A DNA stretch of 64,000 nt from a virus. Positions 2,693 to 53,431 of this stretch are shown here, one piece after another. The position numbers and the translations under genes were made by a program. The notes below the pieces were generated by a model, which did not search any database, was not told the origin of the DNA, and saw only the letters and a list, made by a program, of their open reading frames with translations. The stretch's first letter is position 1; every line of letters starts with the position of its first letter. The stretch is taken from the IMG/VR virus record IMGVR_UViG_3300017917_003822, positions 206,630-270,629 of that record; one strand, 5' to 3'.

Positions 2693-3481
2693 ATGAGCGA
2701 GAGTAAATCTCTATTTAAGGCCTTTATCAGGGTGGTAAAATCCATCTCGGAAAGGGATAATTATTTCCTTGGTGGATTTGGTGCGGTTGAGGTTGTGAGA
2801 GAACCTCTAATAGAGGCCAAAGACAAATCTGAGGTTAAGAAGATATTACTGGAGAGATATCCCCAATTTTTTACCAACGGTAAAGTCCACGAAAGAGAAA
2901 CTAAGGATAATGCTCAATTTTTCTATGTTGTAATATACCCTCTATACGAATGGGAGAAAAAACAAATCGAAGAGGGAGAATGGATATGTGAAAGTTGTGG
3001 ACATATTCATGAAAATCAATATCTGTCAAAACCAAGAATTAACGAGAGGTTATTTGGAACAGATAAGCTCTTCTGTAGGAGTGACGAGGATCTTTGTCTG
3101 GAGAATTACAAGAAGGAATATTATAAGGATGTAGATCTTCCAGATGATCTAGCATACATCAAAAAAGATAGTCCAAATTACATCTATAAATGTACGGAGA
3201 AAGCAACAGGTAAAAGCTACATAGGTAAAACTAGAAATGCTCCATTCTTTAGATGGTGGAATCACCTAACGCACTCAAGCAGTCCCTTTGGAATTTATCT
3301 AAGACAAACCAAATTGAGTGATTGGACTTTCGAAGTTCTTGAGGAGCTGCCAGGAAATATTGATGAGAGCGAAGTTTTTAGAATAGAATCTGAGTACATA
3401 ATGAAATACGATAGCATTCAGAATGGCTATAATACGGTAATTAGTAATAAGAAGGTTCTGGCTGATAACAACGATAACTAA
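2693..3481 (+). CDS. GIY-YIG nuclease domain protein (possible free-standing homing endonuclease) with N-terminal CxxC region
   Basis: C-terminal YIYKCTEKATGKSYIGKT...R..W.H...E...NGYN is the GIY-YIG signature. CESCGH lies upstream. Confidence 0.6.
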   Translation: MSESKSLFKAFIRVVKSISERDNYFLGGFGAVEVVREPLIEAKDKSEVKKILLERYPQFFTNGKVHERETKDNAQFFYVVIYPLYEWEKKQIEEGEWICESCGHIHENQYLSKPRINERLFGTDKLFCRSDEDLCLENYKKEYYKDVDLPDDLAYIKKDSPNYIYKCTEKATGKSYIGKTRNAPFFRWWNHLTHSSSPFGIYLRQTKLSDWTFEVLEELPGNIDESEVFRIESEYIMKYDSIQNGYNTVISNKKVLADNNDN

Positions 3482-3532
3482 CTTTTTGTAGCTTGTTTCA
3501 GTTGCAAATTATTAGCTAAACATGTAAAAATT

Positions 3533-3724
3533 ATGGATAAGTGGAATTACGATAAAAGAGTTAGAGAATTATCTCAAAAAATTGAACAGTATAAAATACA
3601 CGCTAAACGTGAAATTGAAAACAATAAAGTTTGTCATCCAAGCAAAGTGAGAAATAATTCTCAACGATATTTGGAAATCTGTAAACAAAGGTATAAGGAT
3701 TTTACAGGTGAGGACTATGAATAA
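3533..3724 (+). CDS. hypothetical protein (AT-rich island)
   Basis: 63-aa ORF in the compositionally distinct 3.5-4.9 kb island. Confidence 0.3.
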   Translation: MDKWNYDKRVRELSQKIEQYKIHAKREIENNKVCHPSKVRNNSQRYLEICKQRYKDFTGEDYE

Positions 3725-3799
3725 TTTTTATTGCTTATAACGTTCCCACGCTTGGCGAAGTGGCGGATGTAAAGCACTAAATTTTTAATTAAACAAATT

Positions 3800-4018
3800 A
3801 TGAAAAAGAACAAAACTCGAAATATAGACAAACAACTTCAAAAATTGTTATATGAACAATATGGTGAAGAATACACTCAATGGTATATGAAAACTTTTGA
3901 TGTTAAATTATATTTTGATGGAGCGGAAACATCAGATAGAGGTTATTTAACAGATAGAGAGTTTGACGAATGGAAAGAAGAAAAATGGAAACAATTTTTG
4001 TCCAAGTATGGTTATTAA
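3800..4018 (+). CDS. hypothetical protein (AT-rich island)
   Basis: 72-aa ORF preceded by the TATAACGTT...CTAAATTT motif. Confidence 0.3.
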   Translation: MKKNKTRNIDKQLQKLLYEQYGEEYTQWYMKTFDVKLYFDGAETSDRGYLTDREFDEWKEEKWKQFLSKYGY

Positions 4019-4114
4019 AAATTTATTATATATAACGTTTTCCGTGTATAATAAGTGGCGTACACGATAAACCAAGCCACTAAATTTAAAAATTAACTTT
4101 AAAATACAAAACAA

Positions 4115-4399
4115 ATGAAAAATTTAAAACTTAGAAGCCATTTTTTATACACGTTGTTATGTGTAGTTTTTTTAACATCTTGTAATTGTGATAAACAAAA
4201 AAAAGAAATTATTATTGAAGAAAATAATCATCAAGAAGATTATTACATTTACAATGATACATTACAAAATAATGCAATTCAAGAAAAAAATAATAGTAGC
4301 GGTGTAGGTATCACAACAAGTAGTAAATTAGGTGTAGAAGTAACAGAAGGTGTTTATATTAATTCAAGCGGTGAGTTAGAATTAGGATTTGGTTTGTAA
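4115..4399 (+). CDS. putative lipoprotein
   Basis: N-terminus MKNLKLRSHFLYTLLCVVFLTSC: signal peptide plus lipobox Cys, Bacteroidetes style. Confidence 0.45.
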   Translation: MKNLKLRSHFLYTLLCVVFLTSCNCDKQKKEIIIEENNHQEDYYIYNDTLQNNAIQEKNNSSGVGITTSSKLGVEVTEGVYINSSGELELGFGL

Positions 4400-4474
4400 A
4401 ATTACACATAACGGTTTGCGTATTGGCGTTGTTGCCAATACTGATGTTAAATTGAAAAACTAAATTTGAAATAT

Positions 4475-4723
4475 ATGGAAAATGACAATATGAAACAAGA
4501 AGGCAATAACGCTAATACGCTGTTATCGGCAGTTGTTGTTCATCCACATCCGATAATTGAAATGCAAATAAAGAACTTTAAAAAAGATGAAGTTGGCTAC
4601 ATCGCTGAATGTATTTTATACAACAAAGAATTTAAAGAAGTAGAAAGCTCATTCTTTATTGACGAATATAGAGCCAACGAAATCATTGATTTAATGCAGA
4701 CGTTTTTGAACAATTGCCGATAA
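4475..4723 (+). CDS. hypothetical protein
   Basis: Track start 4466 is TTG. First ATG at 4475 gives MENDNMKQ... Confidence 0.3.
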
Positions 4724-4724
4724 A

Positions 4725-4907
4725 AAATATATTGATAATACTTCATCTATACACACTTTAAGACATTCATCATTTACAAATTTACTAGAATCTGGAACAG
4801 ATTTAAGGATAATTCAAAAAATTGCGGGACATTCAAGTTCCAAAACAACAGAAATCTACACCCATGTTTCGAATAATATCCTAAATAAAGTAAAACTTCC
4901 GATTTAA
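4725..4907 (+). pseudogene. remnant of tyrosine recombinase/integrase (C-terminal box II only, no start codon)
   Basis: Frame translates ...[52 protein letters not shown]. This is the HxxR...Y catalytic C-terminus of XerC/D-like integrases. No ATG in frame, and the catalytic N-terminal ~250 aa is absent. Confidence 0.6.
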
Positions 4908-4939
4908 TTTTTTTATGTCGAGATAATTAATTACTTTTG
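4908..4939 (+). promoter_or_regulatory. promoter-like motif copy 2
   Basis: TTTTTTT-ATGTCGAG-N9-TACTTTTG, upstream of 4972. Confidence 0.4.
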
Positions 4940-4971: not shown

Positions 4972-5541
4972 ATGGGACTAGATATCACGGTTTATAAACC
5001 AATTAAAGTAAAGGAGGAGGATTTTCAAAAGATTGAGGATTTTTTAAACATCGAAGACCACCCGGAACTTTCAGTGTTTTCTGATTTTATATTCGAGAAA
5101 GAAAACGAATACTATGATCTTGAAAACGAAGCCAGAGATCTGGGTTACAATCTTGAGGATTTAATCTGGACCGGAACATCTTTTGGACCGGAATCTGCTT
5201 ACACTTTCAAAGATAGTGATGGAAATGATGTTAAAATTATCATCACAAAAACAATCAAGAAAATTGATAAGTGTATTGCCATCGAGGAGGTTGGGTATCA
5301 GAGAAAAGGTGCGAATAAAAAATTCTATGAAGATAAGATATGGGACAGTCCATGTGTTATAGATCAGAAGACACTAAACAATCACTGGGAGACTTACTTT
5401 TCAAACCAAACCCCCGAGAGCAAAGGTGGATGGGGAAGCGGGGTTGAATATGAACAGGATGATGAGACCATGAGAAAAAACTTTAAGAAAAATATCATAG
5501 ATAAATTCATCGAGGGGGAAACTTTTGTCATATATCATTAG
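4972..5541 (+). CDS. hypothetical protein
   Basis: 189-aa ORF downstream of promoter motif 4908-4939. Confidence 0.4.
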   Translation: MGLDITVYKPIKVKEEDFQKIEDFLNIEDHPELSVFSDFIFEKENEYYDLENEARDLGYNLEDLIWTGTSFGPESAYTFKDSDGNDVKIIITKTIKKIDKCIAIEEVGYQRKGANKKFYEDKIWDSPCVIDQKTLNNHWETYFSNQTPESKGGWGSGVEYEQDDETMRKNFKKNIIDKFIEGETFVIYH

Positions 5542-5550
5542 GAGAGCTTT

Positions 5551-5775
5551 ATGAAAAATGAAACTATTATAAAAAAGGTTTTTAAGGAATTTGGTGAGAA
5601 CTTTAATGACTTAACAGGTAGTCAATTATTAGCTATTGATGAGTGTATGTTATTAGCAAGACAAGACAAAGCCAATAGAGTAATTAAAGAAATTGAAAAT
5701 CGCACTAATAAAGTGGGTTGTTTTTGGGCTGATGAGGAAAGAACGAAAAAAATAATCCATGGATACGGGAATTAA
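5551..5775 (+). CDS. hypothetical protein
   Basis: 74-aa ORF. Confidence 0.35.
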   Translation: MKNETIIKKVFKEFGENFNDLTGSQLLAIDECMLLARQDKANRVIKEIENRTNKVGCFWADEERTKKIIHGYGN

Positions 5776-5783
5776 GTAATATT

Positions 5784-6053
5784 ATGAGAGTTGGAGATTT
5801 ATATGAAATGGGATTCTTTCATAGAGATGGCAATTATGCAACATCCAAATGGATAGTTAAAGATGATGGATGGGGTGAAAATAGTTCAGCAACCATACAA
5901 TATAGACCAGGAAATGGGATCGTTTTGAATAGCGGAGACGATGTAGATTTTAGCAGATTTTCCCTCTGTATTTATGGTAATTCATCATGTCCCAGTATAC
6001 CAGTAAAAATAAGATCCAAGGAGGACCTGATTCAGCTGGAGAGATTCTTCTAA
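5784..6053 (+). CDS. hypothetical protein
   Basis: 89-aa ORF. Confidence 0.35.
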   Translation: MRVGDLYEMGFFHRDGNYATSKWIVKDDGWGENSSATIQYRPGNGIVLNSGDDVDFSRFSLCIYGNSSCPSIPVKIRSKEDLIQLERFF

Positions 6054-6065
6054 AAAAAATATGCT

Positions 6066-6530
6066 ATGGAAAGAAAAACATCAAAAGAATGGTATGATTT
6101 AATACCGGATGAATATGGATTAAAAATACTAGATCCAGATGGATGGGATAGAGAAAATTTCCAGATTTCTTTTTATGAGGAACTGATAACAAGGGAGGAG
6201 TTCAAAAATAGAATATCACTTTCCACGATTCAATGTAAAAAAATTAATTTCCTCGATGATGTCACATATAAGGGGAGTTCTCTAAATGGGCACACCATAG
6301 AAGACATTAAGGCAGAAATTTCAAAGTCCACAGGTTACGATCCTTCAAATATTAGATTATTTGGTTCAAGAATAACGGGTGGTTGGAACGATCATTCGGA
6401 TCTTGATGTCGCTATAATGGACGAAAATAAAGTTCATTTGTGTTTATCCAGTGTAAACTATCTTGGATTAAACTGTGAGATCCGATTTGTTGAAGATTTT
6501 GAGGTCTCCTGGTTAAAGGATTCAGTTTAA
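6066..6530 (+). CDS. minimal nucleotidyltransferase (Pol-beta superfamily) domain protein
   Basis: LFGSRITGGWNDHSDLDVAI matches the hG[GS]x(9-13)DhD nucleotidyltransferase motif. Confidence 0.5.
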   Translation: MERKTSKEWYDLIPDEYGLKILDPDGWDRENFQISFYEELITREEFKNRISLSTIQCKKINFLDDVTYKGSSLNGHTIEDIKAEISKSTGYDPSNIRLFGSRITGGWNDHSDLDVAIMDENKVHLCLSSVNYLGLNCEIRFVEDFEVSWLKDSV

Positions 6531-6552
6531 TTAACAATAAACCACAAATTTA

Positions 6553-6585
6553 ATTTTTTTATCCCGAAATAATTTACTATGTTTG
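6553..6585 (+). promoter_or_regulatory. promoter-like motif copy 3
   Basis: TTTTTTT-ATCCCGA-N10-TATGTTTG, upstream of rnlA. Confidence 0.4.
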
Positions 6586-6603
6586 CGTCTATAATCCTTA
6601 GAG

Positions 6604-7683
6604 ATGAAATACGACATAAACATATTAAATAGCTATATTGATAATGGGCTGCTGGAAAAAAACCCACATCCAACATTACCTCTCGATATCTACAACTACT
6701 CCCGGGAGTGCCAATTTTCACGTCATTGGGATGAGATAACCCTCAACATGAGGGGCACAGTCTTAGACAGAGATGGAAATGTAGTAGCAAGAACATTTTC
6801 AAAATTCTTCAATCTGGAAGAACATCAACCCGAAGAAATTCCAAATGAATCATTTGACGTTTTTGAAAAAATGGATGGTTCACTGGGTATTTTATTTAAT
6901 TACAACGATCAGTGGATATTTGCAACTAAGGGATCATTCTCGTCAGATCAATCAATCAGAGGTAAGGAAATTTTGGAGAAGTACGACTATCAAAGTCTAG
7001 CGAAAGATTGCACATATTTATTCGAGATCATATATCCAGAAAATAGAATTGTCGTCAGCTACGATTTCGAAGATCTAGTACTATTAGCAATCATCAATAA
7101 CGAGGATGGCTATGAATATGACATACACTCGGAGGAGGCGCTTTCTGATGTACTGGATATCAAGGGTTTTAGAATTGTTAAAAAATACCATGGAGTTCAG
7201 GACTATAAGGAGCTTAAGAAAATCATAGATAACAATGCAGAGGGATTCGTCATCAGATTCAAATCTGGTTTCAGAATGAAGATCAAAGGGGAAGAGTATG
7301 TTAGACTCCATCGGCTTCTAACAAACTTCTCGAACATTGACATCTGGGAACTTTTGAAGAATGGGGAGGATCTTGGTAATTTTCTGGACAGAGTTCCTGA
7401 TGAATTTGATCTCTGGGTCAAGAATATTATCTCAGATCTAAGAAGACAGTACCTGGTAATCGAGGAATCAGCACATGAGGTCCATTCATCATTCTTTGTT
7501 GCGAGACCAGATTTTTCGAGAGAAGCGGGAAAGAAAGAATATGCTCTGTGGGTTAAAGAACAAGAAAAGAATTTGCAAGGTATATTATTTTGTCTGTATG
7601 ACGAGAAAAGGTATTCGGATCACATTTGGAAAATGATAAGACCGAAATACCAAAAACCATTTTGGAACAAAATTGAGGATTGA
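6604..7683 (+). CDS. rnlA: ATP-dependent RNA ligase, T4 RnlA (Rnl1) family
   Basis: MRGTVLDRDGNVVARTFSKFFNLEE and FEKMDGSLGILF...ATKGSFSSDQ align with T4 Rnl1 (ECRGIMFEMDGE...EKFFNLNE; TKEDGSL...SKGSIKSEQ). Motif I is KxDGS, motif IV is EGFVIR. Confidence 0.8.
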   Translation: MKYDINILNSYIDNGLLEKNPHPTLPLDIYNYSRECQFSRHWDEITLNMRGTVLDRDGNVVARTFSKFFNLEEHQPEEIPNESFDVFEKMDGSLGILFNYNDQWIFATKGSFSSDQSIRGKEILEKYDYQSLAKDCTYLFEIIYPENRIVVSYDFEDLVLLAIINNEDGYEYDIHSEEALSDVLDIKGFRIVKKYHGVQDYKELKKIIDNNAEGFVIRFKSGFRMKIKGEEYVRLHRLLTNFSNIDIWELLKNGEDLGNFLDRVPDEFDLWVKNIISDLRRQYLVIEESAHEVHSSFFVARPDFSREAGKKEYALWVKEQEKNLQGILFCLYDEKRYSDHIWKMIRPKYQKPFWNKIED

Positions 7684-8326
7684 TATGAAAATTATATTAG
7701 AAAAAAACCAGAATTTATATTTCACGAGTGATACACACTATAATCACTCCAATATTTGCCGGGGAACGTCAAATTGGCCAGGCGGAAGAGGAACCCGAAA
7801 TTTCCATTCACTTGGAGAGATGAACGATGCCATAGTCTCTGGGATCAATTCTATTGTAGGTCCTGACGATTATCTTGTTCATATGGGAGATTGGAGCTTT
7901 GGTGGATTTGAATCTATCATAGAATTCAGAAAAAGAATAGCATGTAAGAACATTATTCTTTTCCTCGGGAATCACGATCATCATATCAGAAACAATAAGG
8001 AAGGTGTTCAAGGATACTTTAGAAAAGTTTCAAGCTACGATGTACTGGATATTAGAAGACCGGAAGGAAAGGAAACTGCTAAATATCAATTTGTATGTTG
8101 TCACTTTCCCATAGCAAGTTGGGACGGCATGAACAAGAAGGTTCCACATCTACATGGTCACGTTCACTTGCCTCCAAATTTAAAAATTCACGAGGGGAGA
8201 GCAATGGACGTTGGAGTAGATGGAAACAATCTACAACCCTACAGCTTAAATGAAATATTAAAGATCATGAAGGATCGTCCAATTAAACATTTGACTTTAC
8301 CAAAAGACCATCACACAGAGGAATAG
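7673..8326 (+). CDS. calcineurin-like metallophosphoesterase (candidate RNA-end healing phosphatase)
   Basis: SDTHYNH, HMGDWSFGG and GNHDHH are metallophosphoesterase motifs. Position between ligase and kinase. Confidence 0.65.
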   Translation: MRIDMKIILEKNQNLYFTSDTHYNHSNICRGTSNWPGGRGTRNFHSLGEMNDAIVSGINSIVGPDDYLVHMGDWSFGGFESIIEFRKRIACKNIILFLGNHDHHIRNNKEGVQGYFRKVSSYDVLDIRRPEGKETAKYQFVCCHFPIASWDGMNKKVPHLHGHVHLPPNLKIHEGRAMDVGVDGNNLQPYSLNEILKIMKDRPIKHLTLPKDHHTEE

Positions 8327-8470
8327 TATGGAAGTAAATGTGGCACAAAGGAGGTTTTGTATCTGGAGATTAGAATTGTGGTGGATCGCTTTTGATTTGC
8401 ACCAATTTCATCCGGAAGGTAGGGTTCATTTAAGAGGTAACTGGTTCTGGAGAATATAAAAACAAGAGAA

Positions 8471-8644
8471 ATGATAACACAAGAAATTTTAAACACTTTT
8501 GTCTTCGATACAATCGGGGGAGAAAAATTTGGGGTCAATGATCCAATAGCTCATGATGAGATTATTGGATACTATCCATCGAGAGAGGAAGCAGAAAAAG
8601 CTTTCATTGAGTACGTAGAAAAAGAAGGTATAATATTCGAATAA
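8471..8644 (+). CDS. small hypothetical protein (57 aa, below ORF-track cutoff)
   Basis: ATG at 8471. Stop overlaps the next start (TAATG). MITQEILNTFVFDTIGGEKFG... Confidence 0.25.
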   Translation: MITQEILNTFVFDTIGGEKFGVNDPIAHDEIIGYYPSREEAEKAFIEYVEKEGIIFE

Positions 8645-9090
8645 TGGAAAATTCAAGAACTGGATACAGTATAATTAAACCAACCATGTTTCTCATAAGA
8701 GGAATCCCAGGATCTGGTAAATCGACATTTGCAAATCACATCTGGAACGAGTATGCAATCTGCGAAGCAGACAAATACTTCATAGACAAGGAAACTGGTG
8801 AATATAAATTTGATGCCTCTAAGCTGAAGGATGCGCATGAATGGTGCAGAAATGAAGTTGAGAACAGAATGAAAGAACATCATCTTAATCCACAGTACTA
8901 TCCTGAAATAGCAGTGTCCAATACATTCACCCAAGAATGGGAAATGCAAAATTATCTGGATCTTGCTGATAAGTATGGTTATCAGGTTGTTTCTTTGATA
9001 GTGGAGAACCGACACGGAGGATCGAACGTTCACAACGTTCCGGAAGAAACCTTGGATAGAATGAGACAAAGATTTGAAATTAAACTATAA
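8644..9090 (+). CDS. P-loop polynucleotide 5'-kinase-like protein (T4 Pnk kinase-domain-like)
   Basis: Walker A GIPGSGKST. Overall pattern resembles the T4 Pnk kinase domain (ISDTNL...; ...DRMRQRF). Confidence 0.6.
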   Translation: MENSRTGYSIIKPTMFLIRGIPGSGKSTFANHIWNEYAICEADKYFIDKETGEYKFDASKLKDAHEWCRNEVENRMKEHHLNPQYYPEIAVSNTFTQEWEMQNYLDLADKYGYQVVSLIVENRHGGSNVHNVPEETLDRMRQRFEIKL

Positions 9091-9096
9091 CAACCA

Positions 9097-9843
9097 ATGG
9101 AGGAATTAACATTATCGGAAGCTAAAGAAAAATACAGAGTCAGAAAGGCTTTCGACATCTACATAGAGGACAAACTTCATACAGTTTATGATATAGATGG
9201 ATATGAACATAAAAATGGTGAATGGAACGGTACACCAACAACGTGGTGGTTGGATTACAGCAGGGATGTAGTTAGAGGCGAGGTTACTCCGGAGAGAAAT
9301 CTGATTCCATATGTTGATAAGGGAAATAATAGGATCTGCTGGGAAATTCGTTTCAAACAGAGAAATTATATGAAGCACAAATGGGACGAATGGAGCTTGA
9401 GGAACTCTGGAACCTGCGAGATATTTGCAAATGGCAAAAAGGTCTACAGCTTTGGTACATTTGATGTTTCATACGCTCTAAGTAAGGCACAATATCTGAT
9501 GGTTCAGTTAAGAGAACATCCGTATGATTTTCTCAATCCGGAGAATGAGCAAGATAGAAAGATATGGTACTATGGTCTACCGGCTAAGGTTAAGCCTAGC
9601 GATTATGCACCAGGAGAAATTAGTATACTCCCAGATTACACTGGAATTGAACCAGAAAGATGGTGGGATGAATACGAGAAAAGAAGAAAACCTGTGGATT
9701 TGAAATCGGATAGAGAACTCAGCGAGTGGGAAAAACAAGACATTGAATCTGACGAGCAGGATTTTAATGAGACTAGGAGCTACGGCAGAATAAATCACGG
9801 CGATGCACTCTGGGACGGAATGATAAATTGGTTTAGAAACTAA
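9097..9843 (+). CDS. hypothetical protein
   Basis: 248-aa ORF. Confidence 0.4.
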   Translation: MEELTLSEAKEKYRVRKAFDIYIEDKLHTVYDIDGYEHKNGEWNGTPTTWWLDYSRDVVRGEVTPERNLIPYVDKGNNRICWEIRFKQRNYMKHKWDEWSLRNSGTCEIFANGKKVYSFGTFDVSYALSKAQYLMVQLREHPYDFLNPENEQDRKIWYYGLPAKVKPSDYAPGEISILPDYTGIEPERWWDEYEKRRKPVDLKSDRELSEWEKQDIESDEQDFNETRSYGRINHGDALWDGMINWFRN

Positions 9844-9849
9844 TAAGGA

Positions 9850-10233
9850 ATGACAACATCTCTTATCATCAGAGGCGAAGTTTTGGGAGCATATGATCTT
9901 ACTTTTGAAGAATTTAAGACATCGGAGCTCAGAACAGTTTTTTTCGAGGAGATCGAAAGAACAATCAGCATGATATATCAGAGATACGCTTTTGAACCAA
10001 GAAGTCCAAAAGTTTTAGCAAAGATACTCGAGGATTCGAGGGAGATTCTATTTCCAGGTAAACCCAATGTTAGATTAACATTTAGCAAGGACGTAAATAA
10101 AGGAAGACTCGATTTGAATGTCATCATGAACTCGATGAAAATAGTAATCAGGAAGCAAGAGCTTTCCATAGTTGAATATCTGATCCACTTGGCAGCAATT
10201 AAGTGTGGCATCGCTTTTATAAAAATAAAATAA
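9850..10233 (+). CDS. hypothetical protein
   Basis: 127-aa ORF. Confidence 0.35.
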   Translation: MTTSLIIRGEVLGAYDLTFEEFKTSELRTVFFEEIERTISMIYQRYAFEPRSPKVLAKILEDSREILFPGKPNVRLTFSKDVNKGRLDLNVIMNSMKIVIRKQELSIVEYLIHLAAIKCGIAFIKIK

Positions 10234-10238
10234 TAAAC

Positions 10239-10649
10239 ATGGAATATAATTTATTTCTAGACGACTTCAGGCACCCATATGATTGTGTGCCATATATGCC
10301 GAATCGTGAAATTTACGCGAAATGGAAATGGGAGATAGTTAGAAACTATGACGAGTTTGTCGAGTATATTACGAAAAATGGTCTTCCTACTCACGTCTCA
10401 TTCGATCACGATCTTGCTGATGAGCATTATGACGATAGCATGTATGGAGGTCAGGCAGACTATGATAGGATGTATCAGGAATTCAAGGAAAAGACTGGAC
10501 TTGACTGTGCAAAATGGTTAGTTGATTACTGTATGGACAACAACCAGAAGCTTCCTGAATATTCTGTTCACTCGATGAATCCTGCTGGTGGAAAAAACAT
10601 TCTGGAGTACCTTAACAACTTTAAAAAATTTCAGGAAGATGGAAAATAA
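10239..10649 (+). CDS. hypothetical protein with conserved SFDHDL motif
   Basis: Track start 10203 is GTG. First ATG at 10239 gives MEYNLFLDDFRHP... Confidence 0.4.
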   Translation: MEYNLFLDDFRHPYDCVPYMPNREIYAKWKWEIVRNYDEFVEYITKNGLPTHVSFDHDLADEHYDDSMYGGQADYDRMYQEFKEKTGLDCAKWLVDYCMDNNQKLPEYSVHSMNPAGGKNILEYLNNFKKFQEDGK

Positions 10650-11046
10650 GAAACCTCTCAGAACACTATCAAAAGAAGATCTCATTAATAGCTTCAACCA
10701 CGGTCTGACTGTTGGAGGACTTAAAAAATTCATCGAGGAGAACAACGTTCCGGATGATGCCAAAGTTATGGTTCAGAGAGTTCATGACCACTACTTTGAA
10801 AATAATAATTGGGGAGTTTATCTAAAGGAGGGCTATTGGTATTATTCGGCAGAAAAAACAAATGAAAATATGCTCGAGGAGATCGAGAGAAGAAACAAAG
10901 GGCTTGAACCTGAATATGATCTAGAAGATCCAAAATCTTTAATGGTAGAGCTCGGAGATGAACTTAAGGAACAATATTATCCAGCTTGGTCATGTGTTAG
11001 ATACAGAGATGACCAGGATTTATTATTTATAGACTCACATTATTAA
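10639..11046 (+). CDS. hypothetical protein
   Basis: In-frame ATG at 10639 (MENKKPL) overlaps the upstream stop by 11 nt. The track extension overlaps the previous gene. Confidence 0.4.
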   Translation: MENKKPLRTLSKEDLINSFNHGLTVGGLKKFIEENNVPDDAKVMVQRVHDHYFENNNWGVYLKEGYWYYSAEKTNENMLEEIERRNKGLEPEYDLEDPKSLMVELGDELKEQYYPAWSCVRYRDDQDLLFIDSHY

Positions 11047-11060
11047 CAAAAAATAGAAAT

Positions 11061-11729
11061 ATGAACAACTCAGCAGAATTTAGAAAATACGCTTTAAGTC
11101 AGGGTATAAGCTCGCTAACACTGGACTATCACGATAAACAAATCCAGGCATCAATGACTCCGATGATCCTTGAGGAAAGGGAAATGAGAGTCACCCAGAT
11201 GACTGTTTTTGATAGATTGATGATGGATAGAATCCTTTGGGTAGCTGGTCCGGTTAACGATAGAATGTCAACCATAGTTCAGGCTCAACTTATGTTCCTT
11301 GATTCCGTTGATGATAGGGATATTACTATGCACATTGACTCCCCCGGTGGGTCTGTTAAATCTGGTCTGAGTATGGTTGATGTTATGTCGTATATTAAAT
11401 CGGATATCCGAACAGTTAACACAGGGATGGCAGCTTCGATGGGATCAATTTTACTTGGAGCAGGAACTAAAGGAAAAAGATCGTCGTTAAGATTTAGTAA
11501 AGTTATGTTGCACCAATCCAGCGGTGGATTTAGTGGAAACATCCAGGATGCAGAAATCGACATGATAGAATGGAAAAAATACAATGAGATCCTGTTTGAG
11601 TTATTGGGTGAATATTGTGACAAACCAGCAGAACAAGTAATGCAAGATGCGACTAGGGATTTTTGGTTGAGTGCAGATGATGCTGTTGCTTATGGCATTA
11701 TCGACGAGGTAATCAGATCTAAAAAATAA
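11061..11729 (+). CDS. clpP: ClpP-family serine protease (candidate prohead protease)
   Basis: Catalytic triad context is GMAASMGS (Ser), MLHQ (His), DATRDFWLSA (Asp). Overall ClpP alignment: DSPGGSV..., GAGTKGKR. Confidence 0.85.
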   Translation: MNNSAEFRKYALSQGISSLTLDYHDKQIQASMTPMILEEREMRVTQMTVFDRLMMDRILWVAGPVNDRMSTIVQAQLMFLDSVDDRDITMHIDSPGGSVKSGLSMVDVMSYIKSDIRTVNTGMAASMGSILLGAGTKGKRSSLRFSKVMLHQSSGGFSGNIQDAEIDMIEWKKYNEILFELLGEYCDKPAEQVMQDATRDFWLSADDAVAYGIIDEVIRSKK

Positions 11730-14174: not shown

Positions 14175-14206
14175 TTTTTTTAATTCGAGAGAATGCCCTA
14201 TATTTG
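14175..14206 (+). promoter_or_regulatory. promoter-like motif copy 4
   Basis: TTTTTTT-AATTCGAG-N9-TATATTTG. Confidence 0.4.
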
Positions 14207-16417: not shown

Positions 16418-17560
16418 ATGGAAAGAAAATTAGCAAGTATACAGAAAATAGGAAAAGTTCTGCCTATAGAGGGAGCAGATGCAATCGAGATGGTAATGGT
16501 TAACTCGTGGAAGGTCGTTTCTAAGAAGGATGAATTCAAGGAAGGTGACTATTGCGTTTATTTTGAAATTGATTCATTTCTTCCAATTAGAGAGGAATTT
16601 GAGTTCTTGAGAAAATCCTCCTATAGAAAGATGGGGGATCTTGAGGGATTCAGACTAAAAACCATAAAACTTAGAGGACAGGTTAGTCAGGGGCTTTGTT
16701 TACCAATCTCCATATTGGAGGGAGATGGTGAAATGAAAATTGGAATCAGCAAGCAACCTTGGGGAGATCAATTACAGCTTGGTCCTTATGACGATGCTCT
16801 TGTTATTCAAGAAGGAGTTGATGTCACAGAACATTTGGGAGTTGTTAAATTTGAACCACCTATACCGGCTGAACTTGCAGGAAAGGTTAAAGGAAATTTC
16901 CCTGGTTTCATCAGAAAAACAGACGAGGAAAGAATCCAGAATATGACGAAGCAATTTGAGGAGATGAAGTCACATCAATACTACATCACGGAAAAACTTG
17001 ACGGTAGTTCAGCAACTTACTATTTTAGAGACGGGGTTTTCGGTGTCTGTTCAAGAAACCTTGAGTTAGCGGATCCTGGAGAATTTGTACCTGGTACTAT
17101 CATTGGTGAAGATGGTGTCGAAAGACCCAAAAAAGAAAATACATTCTGGAAGGTTGCTAGAGAGCTAAAGATAGCAGAAAAACTAGGATCTCTTAATCAA
17201 AATTACGCAATCCAGGGGGAGCTTATTGGGGAAGGAGTGCAAGGAAATCCTTACAAGATCAAAGGACACACACTTAGAATATTTAATGTATTCAATATCG
17301 ATCAACAGGAGTATCTGGGACTTGATGAAATGAGGGATTTTCTTTCGAAGGTTAATGTTGACGATTCACCATTGGAATTGGTTCCTGTCATTGATGAAAA
17401 CTACAAGCTGCATGGAACCATCGAGGAAATTCTACAATATGCTGAGGGTAAATCAGTTCTTCATAATGAGGCCGAGAGAGAAGGAATTGTTATCAGAAAC
17501 AAAGACAAGAGCATCTCATTCAAGGCTATTTCTAATAAATTCTTGCTAAAGGAAAAATAG
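16418..17560 (+). CDS. second ATP-dependent RNA ligase (Rnl5/DraRnl-like: N-terminal OB-like domain + KxDG nucleotidyltransferase)
   Basis: Motif I ITEKLDGSS, motif IV EGIVIRNK, motif V KAISNKF. N-terminal ASIQKIGKVLPIEGADAIEMV...WKVVSKKDEFKEGDYCVYFEIDSFLP. Confidence 0.55.
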   Translation: MERKLASIQKIGKVLPIEGADAIEMVMVNSWKVVSKKDEFKEGDYCVYFEIDSFLPIREEFEFLRKSSYRKMGDLEGFRLKTIKLRGQVSQGLCLPISILEGDGEMKIGISKQPWGDQLQLGPYDDALVIQEGVDVTEHLGVVKFEPPIPAELAGKVKGNFPGFIRKTDEERIQNMTKQFEEMKSHQYYITEKLDGSSATYYFRDGVFGVCSRNLELADPGEFVPGTIIGEDGVERPKKENTFWKVARELKIAEKLGSLNQNYAIQGELIGEGVQGNPYKIKGHTLRIFNVFNIDQQEYLGLDEMRDFLSKVNVDDSPLELVPVIDENYKLHGTIEEILQYAEGKSVLHNEAEREGIVIRNKDKSISFKAISNKFLLKEK

Positions 17561-20078: not shown

Positions 20079-20522
20079 ATGATGACTAGATCAAAAACAA
20101 AAAAGCAACCGGAAAAAAGAAGTGACGAGATTACCGATCTGGAGGTTGCTAGAAAAATGTTAAAAATATACCAGAGCGCACAGGACAGAAAGCTTGACTT
20201 TGATCTTGGCTTTGAGTCGGTTAAAAAATTATTGTCATACCCAACTTGTTACTATACTGGAAGAAGATTTGAAGAGGAAGGTTCGTTTTCCAGAAGTTTC
20301 GATAGAGTTGATTCATCCAAGGGATACGTCGAGGGAAATGTTGTTGCATGCACTGTTGACATTAACGGGAAAAAGAGCAATTTATCGGTGGAGGAAATAG
20401 AATGTCTGTACATTAAATTGGTTAAGCCTCAATCGTTTAAAATGGAGGAGTCCAAAAAAATAGAAATGGAGGTAAATTTCCAGGAAATAAATAATCTGGA
20501 GGGGAACCAGGAGGATATATAA
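20079..20522 (+). CDS. HNH-family endonuclease-like protein
   Basis: CYYTG...SFDRVDSSKGYVEGNVVACTVDINGKKSN resembles phage HNH homing endonucleases (SIDRIDxxKGY...N). Confidence 0.4.
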   Translation: MMTRSKTKKQPEKRSDEITDLEVARKMLKIYQSAQDRKLDFDLGFESVKKLLSYPTCYYTGRRFEEEGSFSRSFDRVDSSKGYVEGNVVACTVDINGKKSNLSVEEIECLYIKLVKPQSFKMEESKKIEMEVNFQEINNLEGNQEDI

Positions 20523-20525
20523 TGA

Positions 20526-21329
20526 ATGGAGATAAAAAATTTTAATACCTGGATAACTGAATCTGAAGACCCGGATAATGGTATAGTAAACAAGGACCAC
20601 ATAGATAAATTAATCAACGATGTGGATTTTTTAAAAAGAGTACCCAAGGGAGATCTACGTTTTGAGGTTCTTAAAAACGGTCAGCAACCACCATTAAAGT
20701 TTTATCTAATTAGGATAATGACGCATGGAAGCCTCTATAGACAAATAAACAGGCTGCTGGATGAAACCGGATTTGATGTTGTACCCGATATGGTTGGTAA
20801 TTATATTACAATTACAATTTTAATTGATGATAGCCTTCCCGGAGGCGATTTTAAAATCAAACAGCTATATGACTGGAGTGAAAGACATAATATGACTGTT
20901 TTATCAAACCCGAAGAACTATGATCAATTAAAAAACGTTGTAGAGAAATCAATTGAACATATTTTCGAGAAAATAAAACAGGTTAGATTGATTGTCCCAT
21001 CAAACATAAGAAAGATTGAAGGATTCTCGGATAAGATTAAGGAGAGCGTAAAGTCCCTTTACGATGGTATAATTGATAATTTTATTGAGAATGGAAGTAT
21101 ACCAAACGAACTAATTGATGATGATATTCTGACTGAAATTTTCACTAAAACTCTTCATGAAAATCCACAGTACATTGAGAAAATAAACAATCTACCTCCA
21201 TCTGCTAAGAAGAGGATTTTTAAAAGCTCGTTGGATCTTTTCAAGGACGATAATATTGAAATAAATCAAAAAACTCTGAACGGCATAGTGGCGTTCTTCA
21301 AAGTTAAAAAAACATGGGGGATGATATGA
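20526..21329 (+). CDS. hypothetical protein
   Basis: 267-aa ORF. Confidence 0.4.
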   Translation: MEIKNFNTWITESEDPDNGIVNKDHIDKLINDVDFLKRVPKGDLRFEVLKNGQQPPLKFYLIRIMTHGSLYRQINRLLDETGFDVVPDMVGNYITITILIDDSLPGGDFKIKQLYDWSERHNMTVLSNPKNYDQLKNVVEKSIEHIFEKIKQVRLIVPSNIRKIEGFSDKIKESVKSLYDGIIDNFIENGSIPNELIDDDILTEIFTKTLHENPQYIEKINNLPPSAKKRIFKSSLDLFKDDNIEINQKTLNGIVAFFKVKKTWGMI

Positions 21330-21724
21330 CAAAAAATCTAAAAACCTTTGAAAGCTGGAATAGTAAGGACGACGAAATAGAGAATCTTCAGGAGTTGCTT
21401 AATTATAACATGGATTATATTAGAGAACTCTTCGATGAGAGAACCATGGAATCGGATTTCTTGGAAATTTCGGAACCGGAAGAATTTGTGGTTGAATATT
21501 GGCCTAAATCTTTGGATGGAGCCATTCCAAAGAGAATCTCATATTATATAGACGAGATCGCGGAGAAAATATCGGAGCGAATGAAAAATAAAATCGATTG
21601 GAGATTCTCACCTAACGGCAACGTGCAGAGAATAATTTTCGAACTCGATAGTCCTGTAAATACGGAACATTTGGAACTCGTCAGAAAATTTAATAAAACA
21701 AAAGAAAAACTAAGATACACATAA
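21314..21724 (+). CDS. hypothetical protein
   Basis: 136-aa ORF. Confidence 0.35.
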   Translation: MGDDMTKNLKTFESWNSKDDEIENLQELLNYNMDYIRELFDERTMESDFLEISEPEEFVVEYWPKSLDGAIPKRISYYIDEIAEKISERMKNKIDWRFSPNGNVQRIIFELDSPVNTEHLELVRKFNKTKEKLRYT

Positions 21725-21754
21725 ATCCGGATTTAACCCCGGATTTATTTTTTT
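21722..21754 (+). terminator. rho-independent terminator
   Basis: 9-bp stem TAAATCCGG/CCGGATTTA, 8-nt loop, then a T7 run. It overlaps the stop codon. Confidence 0.5.
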
Positions 21755-21779
21755 GTAACGGATTCATTTATTACATTTG
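21748..21779 (+). promoter_or_regulatory. promoter-like motif copy 5
   Basis: TTTTTTT-GTAACGGA-N9-TACATTTG, immediately after terminator 21722-21754. Confidence 0.4.
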
Positions 21780-21797
21780 CCAGATAATATAGAAAAA

Positions 21798-22085
21798 ATG
21801 GATCATCTTTCAAAATACTTATCTTCGCCAAAACCGGAGGAAATAGTAGTCCAGTCCAGATATTCATATGTTGATCAATTACATTTGGAGAATAGTAATG
21901 TGGATATCGAGAGTGCACTTAAGAACGATATAGCTAGAAAAATGGTTGATATTTTAATCGAGAGGAATCTGATTGAATTTAAAATGATTAACACAACAAA
22001 TCCATACGAAGCTTCAGTTACGATTTCAGGTAAAATAAAAGTCCAACCTCCGTATTTAGAATTTAAACTTTCAGGAATGATATGA
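21798..22085 (+). CDS. hypothetical protein
   Basis: Track start 21777 is TTG inside the -7 box. ATG at 21798 gives MDHLSKY... Confidence 0.35.
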   Translation: MDHLSKYLSSPKPEEIVVQSRYSYVDQLHLENSNVDIESALKNDIARKMVDILIERNLIEFKMINTTNPYEASVTISGKIKVQPPYLEFKLSGMI

Positions 22086-26364: not shown

Positions 26365-27138
26365 ATGAAAGACGCACTAGGCGACAGAATGAAAGAGTTC
26401 TATGAGGATAGAACTAGAATCAAACTCCCAAGGAGAACCTACACAATTATCCGCATCGACGGAAAAGCATTTCACACTTACACAAAAGGATTAGAAAGAC
26501 CGTTTGACGAAGGTCTAATTGAAGACATGAACGGCACGACTGCATACCTGTGCAAGAATATACAGGGTGCTAAATTCGGTTACGTCCAATCCGATGAGAT
26601 CTCACTAGTATTAACAGATTTTGATGATCTAAGTACACACGCATGGTTTGATAACAATCTTCAAAAGATGGCTTCTGTTGCAGCATCGATGGCCACATCT
26701 GAATTTAATCGATTGAGATTGATGAGAGATTCAAAGAACGGAGCACTTGATATTCGAGAGCTAAACCTTTTTAAAATGGCACAGTTTGATGCTAGAGTGT
26801 TTCAAATTCCATTTATCGATGAAGTTGAAAACTACTTCATCTGGAGACAACAGGATGCAGTAAGGAATAGTATATCATCAGTTGCACAAAGCCTATACAG
26901 TCCAAAGCAACTACACGGGGTTAAGACTGATCAGATGCAGGAGATGATCTTTCAAAAAGGAATTAATTGGAACGACTATGATTTCCGTCTGAAAAGAGGT
27001 GCAGTTATCGGGAAGGTCCCAGTTGAGCTAACCAGCGGGGACGTAACTTACACAAGGAATAGATGGATGGTAATAGACACTCCAACATTTACTCAGGATA
27101 GAGAATTCATTAAAAATCTTTTAAAAATAGAAAAATGA
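26365..27138 (+). CDS. Thg1-like protein (tRNA-His guanylyltransferase family, 3'-5' nucleotidyltransferase)
   Basis: TIIRIDGKAFHTY, YVQSDEISLVL and FDARVFQIP...IWRQQDAVRNS align with the Thg1 N-terminal catalytic core (VVRLDGRNFHRF; YGQSDEYSFVF; FDGRVVVYP...SWRQADCHINN). Confidence 0.8.
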   Translation: MKDALGDRMKEFYEDRTRIKLPRRTYTIIRIDGKAFHTYTKGLERPFDEGLIEDMNGTTAYLCKNIQGAKFGYVQSDEISLVLTDFDDLSTHAWFDNNLQKMASVAASMATSEFNRLRLMRDSKNGALDIRELNLFKMAQFDARVFQIPFIDEVENYFIWRQQDAVRNSISSVAQSLYSPKQLHGVKTDQMQEMIFQKGINWNDYDFRLKRGAVIGKVPVELTSGDVTYTRNRWMVIDTPTFTQDREFIKNLLKIEK

Positions 27139-30667: not shown

Positions 30668-31153
30668 ATGAATAAAGAAAATCAACCATGGCTAAGAGCC
30701 AGCATTAAAATAACAAAACCAATAGTTCTAATTGATATGGACGGGGTTATTTGTGATTTTGATAAGAGAGCTAAAGAACTGGAGGCACAAGGTATTAAAG
30801 GTCACAGTCTTTTCAAACATCCGAGTGCATACAGAGCTTTAGAACCCATAGAAGGAGCGGTTGATGCATGGCACGATTTACAGGATAAGTACGAGACCTA
30901 TATTTTAAGTACTCCACCTTGGAGTAATCCTGATGCTTGGTCAGAAAAAAGAATCTGGGTTCAGCAGTATCTAGGTGACAGTGCTAAGAAAAAACTGATC
31001 CTATGTCACAACAAAGGTCTAGTTATCGGTGATTATCTTATCGATGATCGAATTGCCAACGGTGTAGCTGATTTCAAGGGGGAACACATTCACTTTGGAA
31101 CAGATAAGTTTCCTGGATGGGAAAGTGTACTTGAGTATCTTAAATCTAAATAA
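30668..31153 (+). CDS. 5'(3')-deoxyribonucleotidase (NT5C-family HAD phosphatase)
   Basis: VLIDMDGVICDF (DxDG HAD motif I) and LIDDR align with cytosolic 5'(3')-deoxyribonucleotidase. Confidence 0.7.
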   Translation: MNKENQPWLRASIKITKPIVLIDMDGVICDFDKRAKELEAQGIKGHSLFKHPSAYRALEPIEGAVDAWHDLQDKYETYILSTPPWSNPDAWSEKRIWVQQYLGDSAKKKLILCHNKGLVIGDYLIDDRIANGVADFKGEHIHFGTDKFPGWESVLEYLKSK

Positions 31154-31452: not shown

Positions 31453-32196
31453 ATGTTTAAATTTTACGAAGTAGGTGGAAAAGTTAGAGATGAGATTTTA
31501 GGTCTAGAATCTAAGGACGTTGATTATGTTGCAGTTCCGAACGATGGGCTATTGGAAAAGAATCATGACGCTTATGAGATGTTTGTCATTCTCGAAACCT
31601 ATCTGCACAATCAGAATTTTGAAATTTTTCTAACAACACCAGAATGCTTTACGATCAGAGCAAAATTCCCGAAGGATCATAAATATCAAGGGGTTGCTGA
31701 TTTCGTGATGGCAAGGAAAGAGGTTGGATACATTCAGGGTACAAGAACTCCGATCATTAAACCTGGAACACTATATGATGATCTTGAAAGAAGAGACTTT
31801 ACTCTTAATGCACTAGCAAGAGATGAAGACGGTCAAATTATTGATTATTTCAATGGTTTAAACGATCTAAATGAGAAAAAGCTTGTAACCCCTCTGGAAG
31901 CAAAAACAACGATGCTAGACGATCCCTTAAGGCTTCTAAGAGCTTTCAGATTTTCAATCACCAAGGGATTTGAGATATCACCGGACATTATGAATACCTG
32001 CACGAGCAACGAGGTTATAGATAAGTTGGAGACTGTTGTTTCTCAGGAAAGAATCCGGGAGGAGATTTTTAAAATGACGAAGCATGACACATTAGGTACG
32101 TTGGAACTATTCGAGAGAATAAGAGTTCTAAACCCAAGAATTTTGAAAATTATATTCAGTAACGGTATGTGGCTAAAACCAACAAACGAGAAATAA
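31453..32196 (+). CDS. class II nucleotidyltransferase, CCA-adding enzyme / poly(A) polymerase head-domain type
   Basis: N-terminal YEVGGKVRDEILGLESKDVDYV matches the GG.VRD..LG...D.D head-domain signature. Confidence 0.55.
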   Translation: MFKFYEVGGKVRDEILGLESKDVDYVAVPNDGLLEKNHDAYEMFVILETYLHNQNFEIFLTTPECFTIRAKFPKDHKYQGVADFVMARKEVGYIQGTRTPIIKPGTLYDDLERRDFTLNALARDEDGQIIDYFNGLNDLNEKKLVTPLEAKTTMLDDPLRLLRAFRFSITKGFEISPDIMNTCTSNEVIDKLETVVSQERIREEIFKMTKHDTLGTLELFERIRVLNPRILKIIFSNGMWLKPTNEK

Positions 32197-37243: not shown

Positions 37244-37591
37244 ATGAAGGTTATTATAGCAGGAAGCAGAGAATTCTCAAATTTCCAACTCATGTTTGCC
37301 AAATGCGAGGAGATACTCGGGGACGCTGAACAGGTAGAAATTGTCAGCGGAACAGCAAGAGGAGCGGATAAAATGGGAGAGCACTATGCTAGTCTAAAAG
37401 GGTTCAAAGTTAAACAATTTCCCGCTGACTGGAATAAATTCGGCAAGGCTGCTGGTCACATTAGAAATAAAGAGATGGCAGAATACGCAGATATGCTGAT
37501 AGCTTTCTGGGATGGAATAAGTTCAGGAACCAGTAGCATGATTAATCTCGCTAAGGAGAATGGACTTGAAGTTCACGTCATTAGATATTAA
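37244..37591 (+). CDS. SLOG-family (DUF2493/DprA-like Rossmann) protein
   Basis: VIIAGSREF...VSGTARGADKMGE...IAFWDGISSGTSSMINLA pattern. Confidence 0.4.
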   Translation: MKVIIAGSREFSNFQLMFAKCEEILGDAEQVEIVSGTARGADKMGEHYASLKGFKVKQFPADWNKFGKAAGHIRNKEMAEYADMLIAFWDGISSGTSSMINLAKENGLEVHVIRY

Positions 37592-52486: not shown

Positions 52487-52564
52487 AGTCAGGTGGCGGA
52501 ATTGGTAGCGCATTTCTCTATACCAACGAGAATCGGAGTGCAGGTTCGAATCCTGTCCTGACTA
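52487..52564 (+). tRNA. tRNA-like gene U4 (canonical length, 78 nt; anticodon arm irregular so isotype unassigned)
   Basis: AGTCAGG-TG-GCGGAATTGGTAGCGC (Leu-like D arm) ... GCAGG-TTCGAAT-CCTGT-CCTGACT-A. Best anticodon stem TCTC/GAGA leaves an ATACCAA loop. Confidence 0.45.
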
Positions 52565-52579
52565 CTAAAAATTGGAAGT

Positions 52580-53321: not shown

Positions 53322-53431
53322 GGTCAGGTGGCGGAATTGGCTATCGCACTCCACTTAAATATGGAGAGTATTGTTTCAACACAGTTAATCAGGTGAAAGG
53401 CACCATACAGGTTCGAGTCCTGTCCTGACCA
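53322..53431 (+). ncRNA. tRNA-like gene U5 with ~35-nt insertion in the variable region (110 nt)
   Basis: Perfect acceptor GGTCAGG/CCTGACC and T arm ACAGG-TTCGAGT-CCTGT. D arm GCGG-AATTGGCTAT-CGC. Anticodon-like hairpin CTCCA-CTTAAATA-TGGAG has an 8-nt loop containing UAA. Confidence 0.4.

Follow-up and report, generated by a model that had tools for sequence, protein, structure and literature searches.

A putative RNA heal-and-seal operon with an Rnl1-type ligase, a stand-alone kinase and non-HAD 3'-end healing candidates in an uncultured jumbo-size phage

Gene layout and promoter-like motifs of the locus

The stretch analyzed here (the window) comprises 64,000 nucleotides (nt) of a large uncultured phage of jumbo size (IMG/VR record IMGVR_UViG_3300017917_003822, positions 206,630 to 270,629) with a G+C content of about 36%. 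At the DNA level, similarity is weak and solely to Flavobacterium and Pseudomonas phages. Positions 6555-10649 of the window carry genes for an Rnl1-type RNA ligase, a calcineurin-like metallophosphoesterase (MPE), a stand-alone P-loop kinase and a cREC domain protein (Table 1). Judged from sequence, this segment is best explained as the first portion of a single phage transcription unit for RNA heal-and-seal, with the functions distributed over separate small proteins. Relatives of the ligase were confirmed 196 times in IMG/VR and 80 loci were fetched (46-73% identity, many on contigs of 100-350 kb). Individual loci are cited by L numbers.

All sizeable open reading frames (ORFs) between 4972 and 13564 lie on the + strand and are densely packed. 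Gene junctions from 6604 to 11046 are at most 11 nt or overlapping, and those up to the ClpP gene are at most 14 nt. The stop codon of orf57 overlaps the kinase ATG (junction TAATG). The first-pass annotation of the locus had described four consecutive genes, for a nucleotidyltransferase (NTase), the ligase, the phosphoesterase and the kinase, behind one promoter motif and ending at 9090. The four ORFs were recovered at their coordinates and all are co-oriented on the + strand. They are not consecutive, as orf43 and orf57 intervene between the MPE and kinase genes. Position 9090 is the end of the kinase gene, but the unit continues via p248 and p127 to the cREC gene, which had been missed. No Pfam, PHROG or PDB match was found for p248, and p127 has no family match in Pfam or PHROGs.

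The two small genes between the MPE and kinase genes are conserved. Homologs of orf43 have E-values of about 1e-21, and their DNA alignment shows mainly synonymous substitutions. Homologs of orf57 reach 1e-30 to 1e-32, with no family match in Pfam, PHROGs and NCBIfam scans. Close relatives have one, the other or neither, hence the two ORFs behave as exchangeable small accessory genes within the putative repair operon. A structured RNA was also considered for the 144 nt between the MPE gene and orf57 (8327-8470), but Rfam gave no meaningful match and the fold did not surpass that of shuffles (z-score +0.7). The L003/L007 alignment instead reveals orf43 as a conserved coding micro-ORF, and the structured-RNA idea was rejected.

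Table 1. Features of the window, with positions counted from its first nucleotide
Feature	Position	Strand	Remarks
Promoter-like motif	4909-4939	+	exact match to recurrent motif; heads preceding unit
ORFs of the unit preceding the ligase gene	4972-5541, 5551-5775, 5784-6053, 6066-6530 (NTase)	+	spacing at most 12 nt
NTase ORF	6066-6530	+	154 amino acids (aa); Pfam Polbeta
Promoter-like motif TTTTTTATCCCGAAATAATTTACTATGTTTG	6555-6585	+	ends 19 nt before ligase ATG
Rnl1-type ATP-dependent RNA ligase	6604-7683	+	359 aa; putative sealing enzyme
Calcineurin-like MPE	7685 (ATG)-8326	+	213 aa; alternative start TTG 7673 gives 217 aa
orf43, Trp-rich micro-protein	8328-8459	+	homologs in L003, L007
orf57, small protein	8471-8644	+	homologs in L004-L006
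Stand-alone P-loop kinase	8644-9090	+	148 aa; candidate 5'-OH polynucleotide kinase
p248	9097-9843	+	inside operon; kept at this position only in L001, L002, L004
p127	9850-10233	+	inside operon; weak conservation in L002, L007
cREC domain protein	10239-10649	+	Pfam cREC_REC
ORF after cREC gene	10639-11046	+	packed in same unit
ClpP-family protease	11061-11729	+	4.2e-55; in same unit
Second RNA ligase, NgrRnl/DraRnl type	16418-17560		N-terminal OB fold + RNA_ligase; PF21189 1.3e-39, PF09414 5.9e-28
Thg1-family 3'-5' nucleotidyltransferase	26365-27138		PF04446 3.9e-29
NT5C-type HAD 5'-nucleotidase	30668-31153		2.7e-17; precedes CCA-type gene
PolyA_pol/CCA-adding head domain protein	31453-32196		247 aa; 1.6e-17
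SPFH/Band-7 protein	35797-37239		1.8e-19
YAcAr SLOG-domain protein	37244-37591		2e-14; directly after SPFH gene
tRNA-like gene 1	52487-52565		apparent 9-nt anticodon loop; ARAGORN: Tyr, anticodon ATA
tRNA-like gene 2	53322-53431		110 nt; 8-nt anticodon loop CTTAAATA; 37-nt variable-region insertion

Inspection of the intergenic gaps of the window revealed a recurrent promoter-like motif consisting of a T-run, CCG, 11 nt and TAnnTTTG. With up to one mismatch, the pattern TTTTTn5CGn11TAnnTTTG has 16 matches in the window against 0.30 expected, and 15 of these are on the + strand. The sites are at 697, 4909, 6555, 14176, 21749, 23386, 27535, 31361 (- strand), 34470, 39346, 42173, 43838, 45477, 49257, 51719 and 56783. 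When we compared the sites with the list of gaps, most fell between genes, on the coding strand. The recurrent motif probably represents one temporal class of phage promoters. TAnnTTTG is an element typical of Bacteroidota promoters, and its occurrence in the motif hints at a Bacteroidota host. Taken alone, TAnnTTTG is marginally enriched (83 vs 72 expected), TTTG-n-TAnnTTTG is not enriched, and a scan for sigma-70 promoters was uninformative (34 sites vs 30 expected). The repair operon probably begins with the copy at 6555-6585, and the next copy on the + strand follows at 14176. The same motif is found about 20 nt upstream of the ligase gene in L001-L003, the three closest relatives, which are without the NTase. 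The NTase was assigned to the preceding unit because a motif copy sits between the NTase and ligase genes. With copies at both 4909 and 6555, the notion of four genes behind a single motif had to be given up. In the simplest reading of the sequence, the NTase would close the unit begun at 4909 and the ligase would open the next.

The NTase ORF is composite. The N-terminal module of about residues 1-60 (6066-6245, motif ILDPDGWDRENF; residues 3-59 match the unannotated phrog_11725) is an independent unit, and protein P0028 carries the same module with a different C-terminus lacking NTase motifs. The C-terminal part (about residues 70-154) is an 85-aa minimal Pol-beta-type NTase (Pfam Polbeta 3.3e-6; PF18765 at 27.6 bits, cutoff 26.9), in which G100-S101, D112-L-D114 and E138 show conservation of at least 90% among 17 homologs. 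Among other database homologs, 26 of 27 cover the C-terminal half alone. Most are stand-alone proteins of 85 aa, encoded in arrays of small phage ORFs with no ligase adjacent. The module was found joined to the mini-NTase in this exact protein alone, on two contigs, and a metagenomic contig of 270,629 bp that encodes it places the phage in the jumbo size class. The first-pass annotation was thus right about the family. Membership in the cassette was not supported, with the ORF upstream of the 6555 motif and only 1 of the 80 loci having an NTase less than 6 kb from the ligase.

Named models nearest to the NTase are MntA-type antitoxin adenylyltransferases, and these match weakly (NCBIfam 4.7e-5; PDB 7ae2 0.044). 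The likeness to MNT-type minimal NTases (MntA of HEPN/MNT systems, PF18765) consists of the GS...DxD...E residues in the C-terminal 85 aa. In contrast to typical members, this NTase is much shorter, fused to an unrelated N-terminal module and has no HEPN partner nearby. Unlike MntA antitoxins it is phage-encoded, among early-type small ORFs. An MntA-like anti-toxin role is only weakly suggested. A role as an RlaP-like repair polymerase was rejected, as there was no PF10127 match at E <= 0.1; the Pfam scan at this threshold lists only Polbeta, MTPAP-like, NTP_transf_2 and ubiquitin.

The NTase might nevertheless be integral to a four-gene cassette with one promoter, for instance by putting back, ahead of ligation, the nucleotides that RloC-type nucleases take away. 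The gene is co-oriented 73 nt upstream of the ligase gene with its catalytic residues intact, and read-through from the 4909 motif is possible as the + strand between 4000 and 12000 yielded no terminator-like site. NTases also recur as partners of RNA ligases in repair systems, including the RlaP family (PMC7824862, PMC12776372). Adjacency to the ligase is repeated on a second contig from another sample, and only there, with an identical NTase. The motif parting the two genes and kept before the ligase in relatives lacking the NTase, the single occurrence among the 80 loci, the ligase-free surroundings of the homologs and the missing RlaP match make an integral role quite unlikely. The NTase is probably a bystander rather than a core part of the repair module.

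Sealing enzyme and candidate healing enzymes

By its sequence, the ligase belongs to the Rnl1 family and is neither a DNA ligase nor a capping enzyme. The match to Pfam RNA_lig_T4_1 (PF09511) is at 8.2e-22 (78.6 bits, gathering score 28.3), and phrog_562 (T4 gp63/Rnl1) matches at 5.5e-67 over residues 15-353 of 359. The best PDB matches are T4 Rnl1 structures (2c5u 5.7e-15, phmmer). Motif I (K89-M-D-G-S) aligns with K-E-D-G-S of T4 including the lysine nucleophile, and motifs III (FEIIYPENR), IV (EGFVIRF) and V (KIKGEEY) align with identical T4 residues. The upstream stretches RGT, KFFNL and TKGS are also identical to T4 in the 2c5u alignment. The conserved positions are R50, K67-FF, K89-MDG, K109, E141 (III), E213-G (IV) and K226-I-K228 (V). 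We take R54, K75/F77 and K119 to be the Rnl1-specific upstream residues in T4 numbering. The resemblance to T4 Rnl1 noted at first was therefore borne out by Pfam, PHROGs, PDB and the catalytic motifs, and profile searches that could have pointed to DNA ligases or capping enzymes gave Rnl1 instead. The direct alignment to T4 Rnl1 ends at residue 245, and the phrog_562 profile extends almost to the end of the protein. The C-terminal domain of Rnl1 is the tRNA-specificity domain in T4. The equivalog cutoff of NCBIfam TIGR02308 was missed (72.9 vs 242.25 bits), and the ligase is thus a divergent family member rather than an ortholog-level match.

The annotation of phrog_562 as 'RNA ligase and tail fiber protein attachment catalyst' raises the alternative that the ligase works chiefly in tail-fibre attachment, which T4 gp63 performs as its second activity, and that its neighbours are functionally unrelated. 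To our knowledge, this activity is known only for T4 gp63. The ligase catalytic residues are all conserved, and the gene lies among enzymes rather than structural genes, with conserved kinase and phosphoesterase partners. A mainly structural role is highly improbable.

The kinase matches Pfam AAA_33 (4.2e-10, residues 15-144 of 148), phrog_2071 (2.6e-40) and phrog_505 'polynucleotide kinase' (4.7e-7). A single-sequence search of the PDB returned noise only and a family profile was required. The profile of 28 relatives placed the fungal kinases 9d8a and 9drz first, followed by the CthPnkp kinase (4gp7), T4 Pnk (1ly1/1ltq), PSTK and Pnkp1 (4xrp) with E-values of 1e-4 to 3e-3. For an AlphaFold2 model (predicted local distance difference test score 78), the 13 best Foldseek matches were all CthPnk or T4 Pnk (9e-6 to 2e-4), and the CthPnkp kinase domain was the best structural match. 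The P-loop (G20-S27) is conserved, D43 (16 residues on), R123 and R143 are invariant, and further Arg and His residues are near-invariant. Resemblance to T4 Pnk, as initially claimed, holds insofar as the nearest solved relatives include CthPnkp and T4 Pnk, but the match to T4 Pnk itself is remote (E about 1e-3). An assignment to dNMP kinases was not obtained, but that to polynucleotide kinases remains a remote one. A Pfam scan of the 148 aa found no HAD (DxDxT) phosphatase domain. In one database source, a close homolog goes by the name 'NEDD4-binding protein 2', and N4BP2 has been described as containing a PNK domain (PMC6598757). The stand-alone kinase family is present in 623 phage records.

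The MPE passes the Pfam Metallophos threshold (6.6e-7). Its motifs DxH, GD, GNH(D/E), H and GHxH are all invariant among relatives, as is a C-terminal DHH. Motifs and a beta-sandwich MPE fold place the protein in the calcineurin-like superfamily, in agreement with the initial call of a calcineurin-like phosphoesterase. The protein can be regarded as a bona fide metallophosphoesterase and as a candidate 2',3'-cyclic phosphodiesterase / 3'-phosphatase. In bacterial Pnkp, an MPE carries out healing as a 2',3'-cyclic phosphodiesterase and monoesterase (PMC3675462). The closest homolog in a cultured phage is found in Flavobacterium phage vB_FspM_immuto_2-6A (L087; MW353175, record 20246-22017), where the gene lies directly after four tRNA genes (Cys, Ser, Glu, Gln).

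The cREC protein is a second candidate for opening 2',3'-cyclic phosphate ends. It matches Pfam cREC_REC (PF20274) at 4.8e-22 (78.9 bits, cutoff 27), and the Receiver-like acidic residues D8-D9 (L7-D8-D9) and D56-H57-D58 are invariant. The profile found no solved relative in the PDB. cREC domains are predicted to open 2',3'-cyclic RNA ends or 1''-2'' cyclic ADP-ribose (ADPr) phosphate (PMC7824862, PMC9503650). The proposal that 3' healing is provided by a non-HAD enzyme remains the best reading, but it had overlooked cREC.

Linkage in related phages and the proposed repair reaction

Partner genes were counted within 6 kb of the ligase gene, and complete 6-kb flanks were available for 46 of the 80 loci. 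Of the 80 loci, 60 have the kinase beside the ligase, 49 the MPE and 35 cREC, always on the ligase strand. At least ten gene orders occur, including MPE-Kin-Rnl1 (23 loci), Kin-Rnl1-cREC (21), Rnl1-MPE-Kin-cREC (7) and cREC-MPE-Rnl1 (6). The order Rnl1-MPE-Kin-...-cREC is limited to the closest relatives of this phage. In 45 of the 46 loci with full flanks, at least one of the three partners stands beside the ligase, which is far above chance. MPE and/or cREC are found in 43 and the kinase in 40 of these 46 loci. The combinations are kinase and MPE (19), kinase and cREC (11), all three (8), MPE only (3), MPE and cREC (2), kinase only (2) and no partner (1). Stop/start overlaps are frequent at the junctions, for example between the kinase stop and the ligase start in L021, L026 and L032. 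The linkage of ligase, kinase, MPE and cREC persists through rearrangement, which argues for functional coupling.

Further support comes from phrog_8238 (profile length 737), which is matched successively by the kinase (4-108), the MPE (192-250) and the ligase (439-675), implying that fused kinase-MPE-ligase proteins exist. More distant ligase homologs of cultured actinophages (36% identity) adjoin, or lie less than 1 kb from, genes annotated as polynucleotide kinases of about 300 aa. In Aeromonas phage phiA009, a gene of the stand-alone kinase family comes immediately after one that carries the annotation 'putative RNA ligase 1/tail attachment protein'. Rnl1 ligase, MPE and kinase together make up a genuine conserved module.

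The distribution of the two 3'-end healing candidates is also informative. L043 was sampled as a locus with the Kin-Rnl1-cREC order, and among the ligase neighbours there no phosphatase domain other than cREC was detectable. Together with the counts in the 46 full-flank loci, this fits MPE and cREC as alternative, interchangeable or sequential 3'-end healers.

The Rnl1 motifs, the Pnk-like kinase, the MPE motifs and the persistent linkage make RNA heal-and-seal the best reading of the Rnl1/Kin/MPE/cREC set, and we consider this function likely. Host anticodon nucleases and other metal-independent ribotoxins leave 2',3'-cyclic phosphate as well as 5'-OH termini. The 148-aa kinase would phosphorylate the 5'-OH, and cREC and/or the MPE would open the cyclic phosphate. 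The MPE may then strip the resulting phosphomonoester to yield a 3'-OH. The Rnl1-type ligase would finally join the 3'-OH to the 5'-PO4 via ligase-AMP (Lys89) and AppRNA. Likely substrates would be tRNAs nicked in the anticodon loop, and we hold this specific substrate with somewhat less confidence than the heal-and-seal function as such. The module would then act in counter-defence. The tRNA break-repair pathway proposed at first as counter-defence is supported in its RNA heal-and-seal aspect, with its substrates and reaction steps being inferred. We tentatively suggest that no healing enzyme here is orthologous to T4 Pnkp, and that an N4BP2-like mini-kinase would supply the 5' phosphate, with cREC and an aq_1665-type MPE as cooperating or partly interchangeable enzymes for opening 2',3'-cyclic phosphates and removing phosphomonoesters. 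This narrower proposal has a somewhat less than even chance of being correct, and if true would give the first biochemical activities for cREC and this kinase family.

Several points weigh against RNA heal-and-seal. The kinase is only remotely like T4 Pnk and CthPnk (E about 1e-3 to 1e-5; template modelling scores of 0.55-0.62). Pnk enzymes presumably bind the phosphoacceptor with an Arg after the catalytic Asp (D-x-x-R; T4 R38, CthPnk R41). Aligned with CthPnk, the kinase family has no conserved Arg there but D43-K-Y-F46 with an invariant F46, so that a hydrophobic residue faces the Pnk Arg position. The nearest solved relative of the MPE is the uncharacterised Aquifex protein aq_1665 (1xm7) rather than a Pnkp phosphatase, and as the family profile finds only aq_1665 among PDB sequences, no function is transferable. 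No RNA ligase is encoded within 7 kb of the immuto MPE homolog. The 80 loci come from related phages, hence the counts are not independent. Both the kinase and the MPE families are so far known from sequence. The corresponding linked gene has been called merely 'a nucleotide kinase', and cREC is experimentally uncharacterised (PMC9503650).

Some of these points would also fit a counter-signalling island, in which MPE and cREC would mainly break down small cyclic or ADPr-derived immune messengers (cyclic oligonucleotides, ADPr>P), free nucleotides would be the substrate of the kinase and the ligase would merely share the island. Both the prediction that cREC acts on RNA ends or cyclic ADPr and the name 'nucleotide kinase' are compatible with such a role, and phage calcineurin-like phosphodiesterases have been proposed to degrade cyclic nucleotides (PMC7824862, PMC9503650). 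The YAcAr SLOG gene of the window is a marker of NAD/ADPr conflicts in the same studies, and the immuto homolog shows an MPE without a ligase nearby. However, the ligase is the specific partner in this linkage, stop and start codons frequently overlap, and the association survives many rearrangements. The succession of kinase, MPE and ligase on phrog_8238 implies a fused protein, the best structural matches of the kinase are polynucleotide kinases and not nucleoside or nucleotide kinases, and sirtuin, KptA and Macro domains were not detected among the ORFs scanned between 4972 and 16240. A counter-signalling island is therefore unlikely, and RNA heal-and-seal is retained as the preferred reading.

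Beyond the operon, the window encodes a broad kit for tRNA and RNA maintenance, which makes the repair reading more credible. The second RNA ligase has its best PDB match in the Naegleria gruberi RNA ligase (5cot, 1.2e-74), which seals duplex nicks with an RNA 3'-OH strand (PMC4408790). The Thg1 gene and the CCA-type head gene are further tRNA end-repair candidates. An HAD phosphatase does exist elsewhere in the window, in the form of the NT5C-type nucleotidase. The two tRNA-like genes are paralogous and atypical, sharing acceptor, D and T arms. The second was detected by Rfam (48.2 bits) and missed by ARAGORN. The tRNA-like genes could be unusual decoders, anticodon-nuclease decoys or tRNA-like cofactors of the kind proposed for SPFH-type repair systems. 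SPFH modules were reportedly linked to RNA repair by Burroughs and Aravind in 2016, and the window encodes an SPFH protein followed by a YAcAr protein. YAcAr is among the NAD+-utilising domains of jumbo phages (PMC7824862). Protease-related genes were also observed near the repair genes. A ClpP-family gene trails them in the same unit here and in L001-L003, and L043 encodes a ClpB/ClpA-like double AAA+ protein (2858-4870) just upstream of the kinase.

Comparison with known RNA repair systems

As a last line of defence against phages, tRNA cleavage is widespread, and few phage answers are known, repair among them. One precedent is the pair T4 Pnkp and Rnl1, which counters the anticodon nuclease PrrC. 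The likeness consists of an Rnl1-family sealing enzyme with the same catalytic motifs and of the logic of 5' phosphorylation, removal of the 2',3'-phosphate and ligation, in a phage-encoded system for which counter-defence is plausible. In contrast to T4 Pnkp, the kinase here is a remote stand-alone protein of 148 aa without a fused HAD (DxDxT) phosphatase, and one Pnk signature residue is missing. Unlike in T4, 3' healing is here assigned to the MPE and/or cREC, and the genes lie in one operon with extra small ORFs. Many large environmental phages share this arrangement, in which the Rnl1 ligase is accompanied by a stand-alone kinase and by an MPE and/or cREC protein in place of a T4-type Pnkp.

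In the Pnkp of C. thermocellum, one polypeptide unites a P-loop 5' kinase, an ATP-dependent ligase and a binuclear MPE that acts on 2',3'-cyclic phosphates and phosphomonoesters (PMC3675462, PMC1920235). Compared with bacterial Pnkp/Hen1 systems (TIGR04075), the phage operon has separate genes, a ligase and an MPE of other subfamilies, and no Hen1.

RlaP and a repair 'syntax' were reportedly defined by Burroughs and Aravind in Nucleic Acids Research in 2016. The phage gene neighbourhoods described by Iyer, Burroughs and Aravind contain exactly the components of the operon here. The cREC and ligase genes were found in operonic linkage, and in a few jumbo phages the phosphatase appears to come from calcineurin-like domains (PMC7824862, 2021). 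A T4-like tRNA ligase, cREC, a nucleotide kinase and, at times, a calcineurin-like phosphoesterase were described in rV5/Mydo-type phages (PMC9503650, 2022). The idea is therefore less new than the first-pass annotation suggested. RNA-end healing by an MPE had been described for bacterial Pnkp (PMC3675462), and the concept of such phage gene sets was already present in comparative genomics. In contrast to the neighbourhoods of Iyer and colleagues, ORF scans found no sirtuin or MazG gene in the unit, and RlaP is absent while a different mini-NTase adjoins. Our analysis adds the boundary of the operon and two conserved micro-ORFs, removes the NTase from the set and shows how MPE and cREC are distributed among the relatives. 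The locus is of value as a concrete test case and does not introduce a new principle. As a compact and easily cloned operon, it offers a direct test of the role of cREC and of whether an MPE can stand in for the HAD phosphatase.

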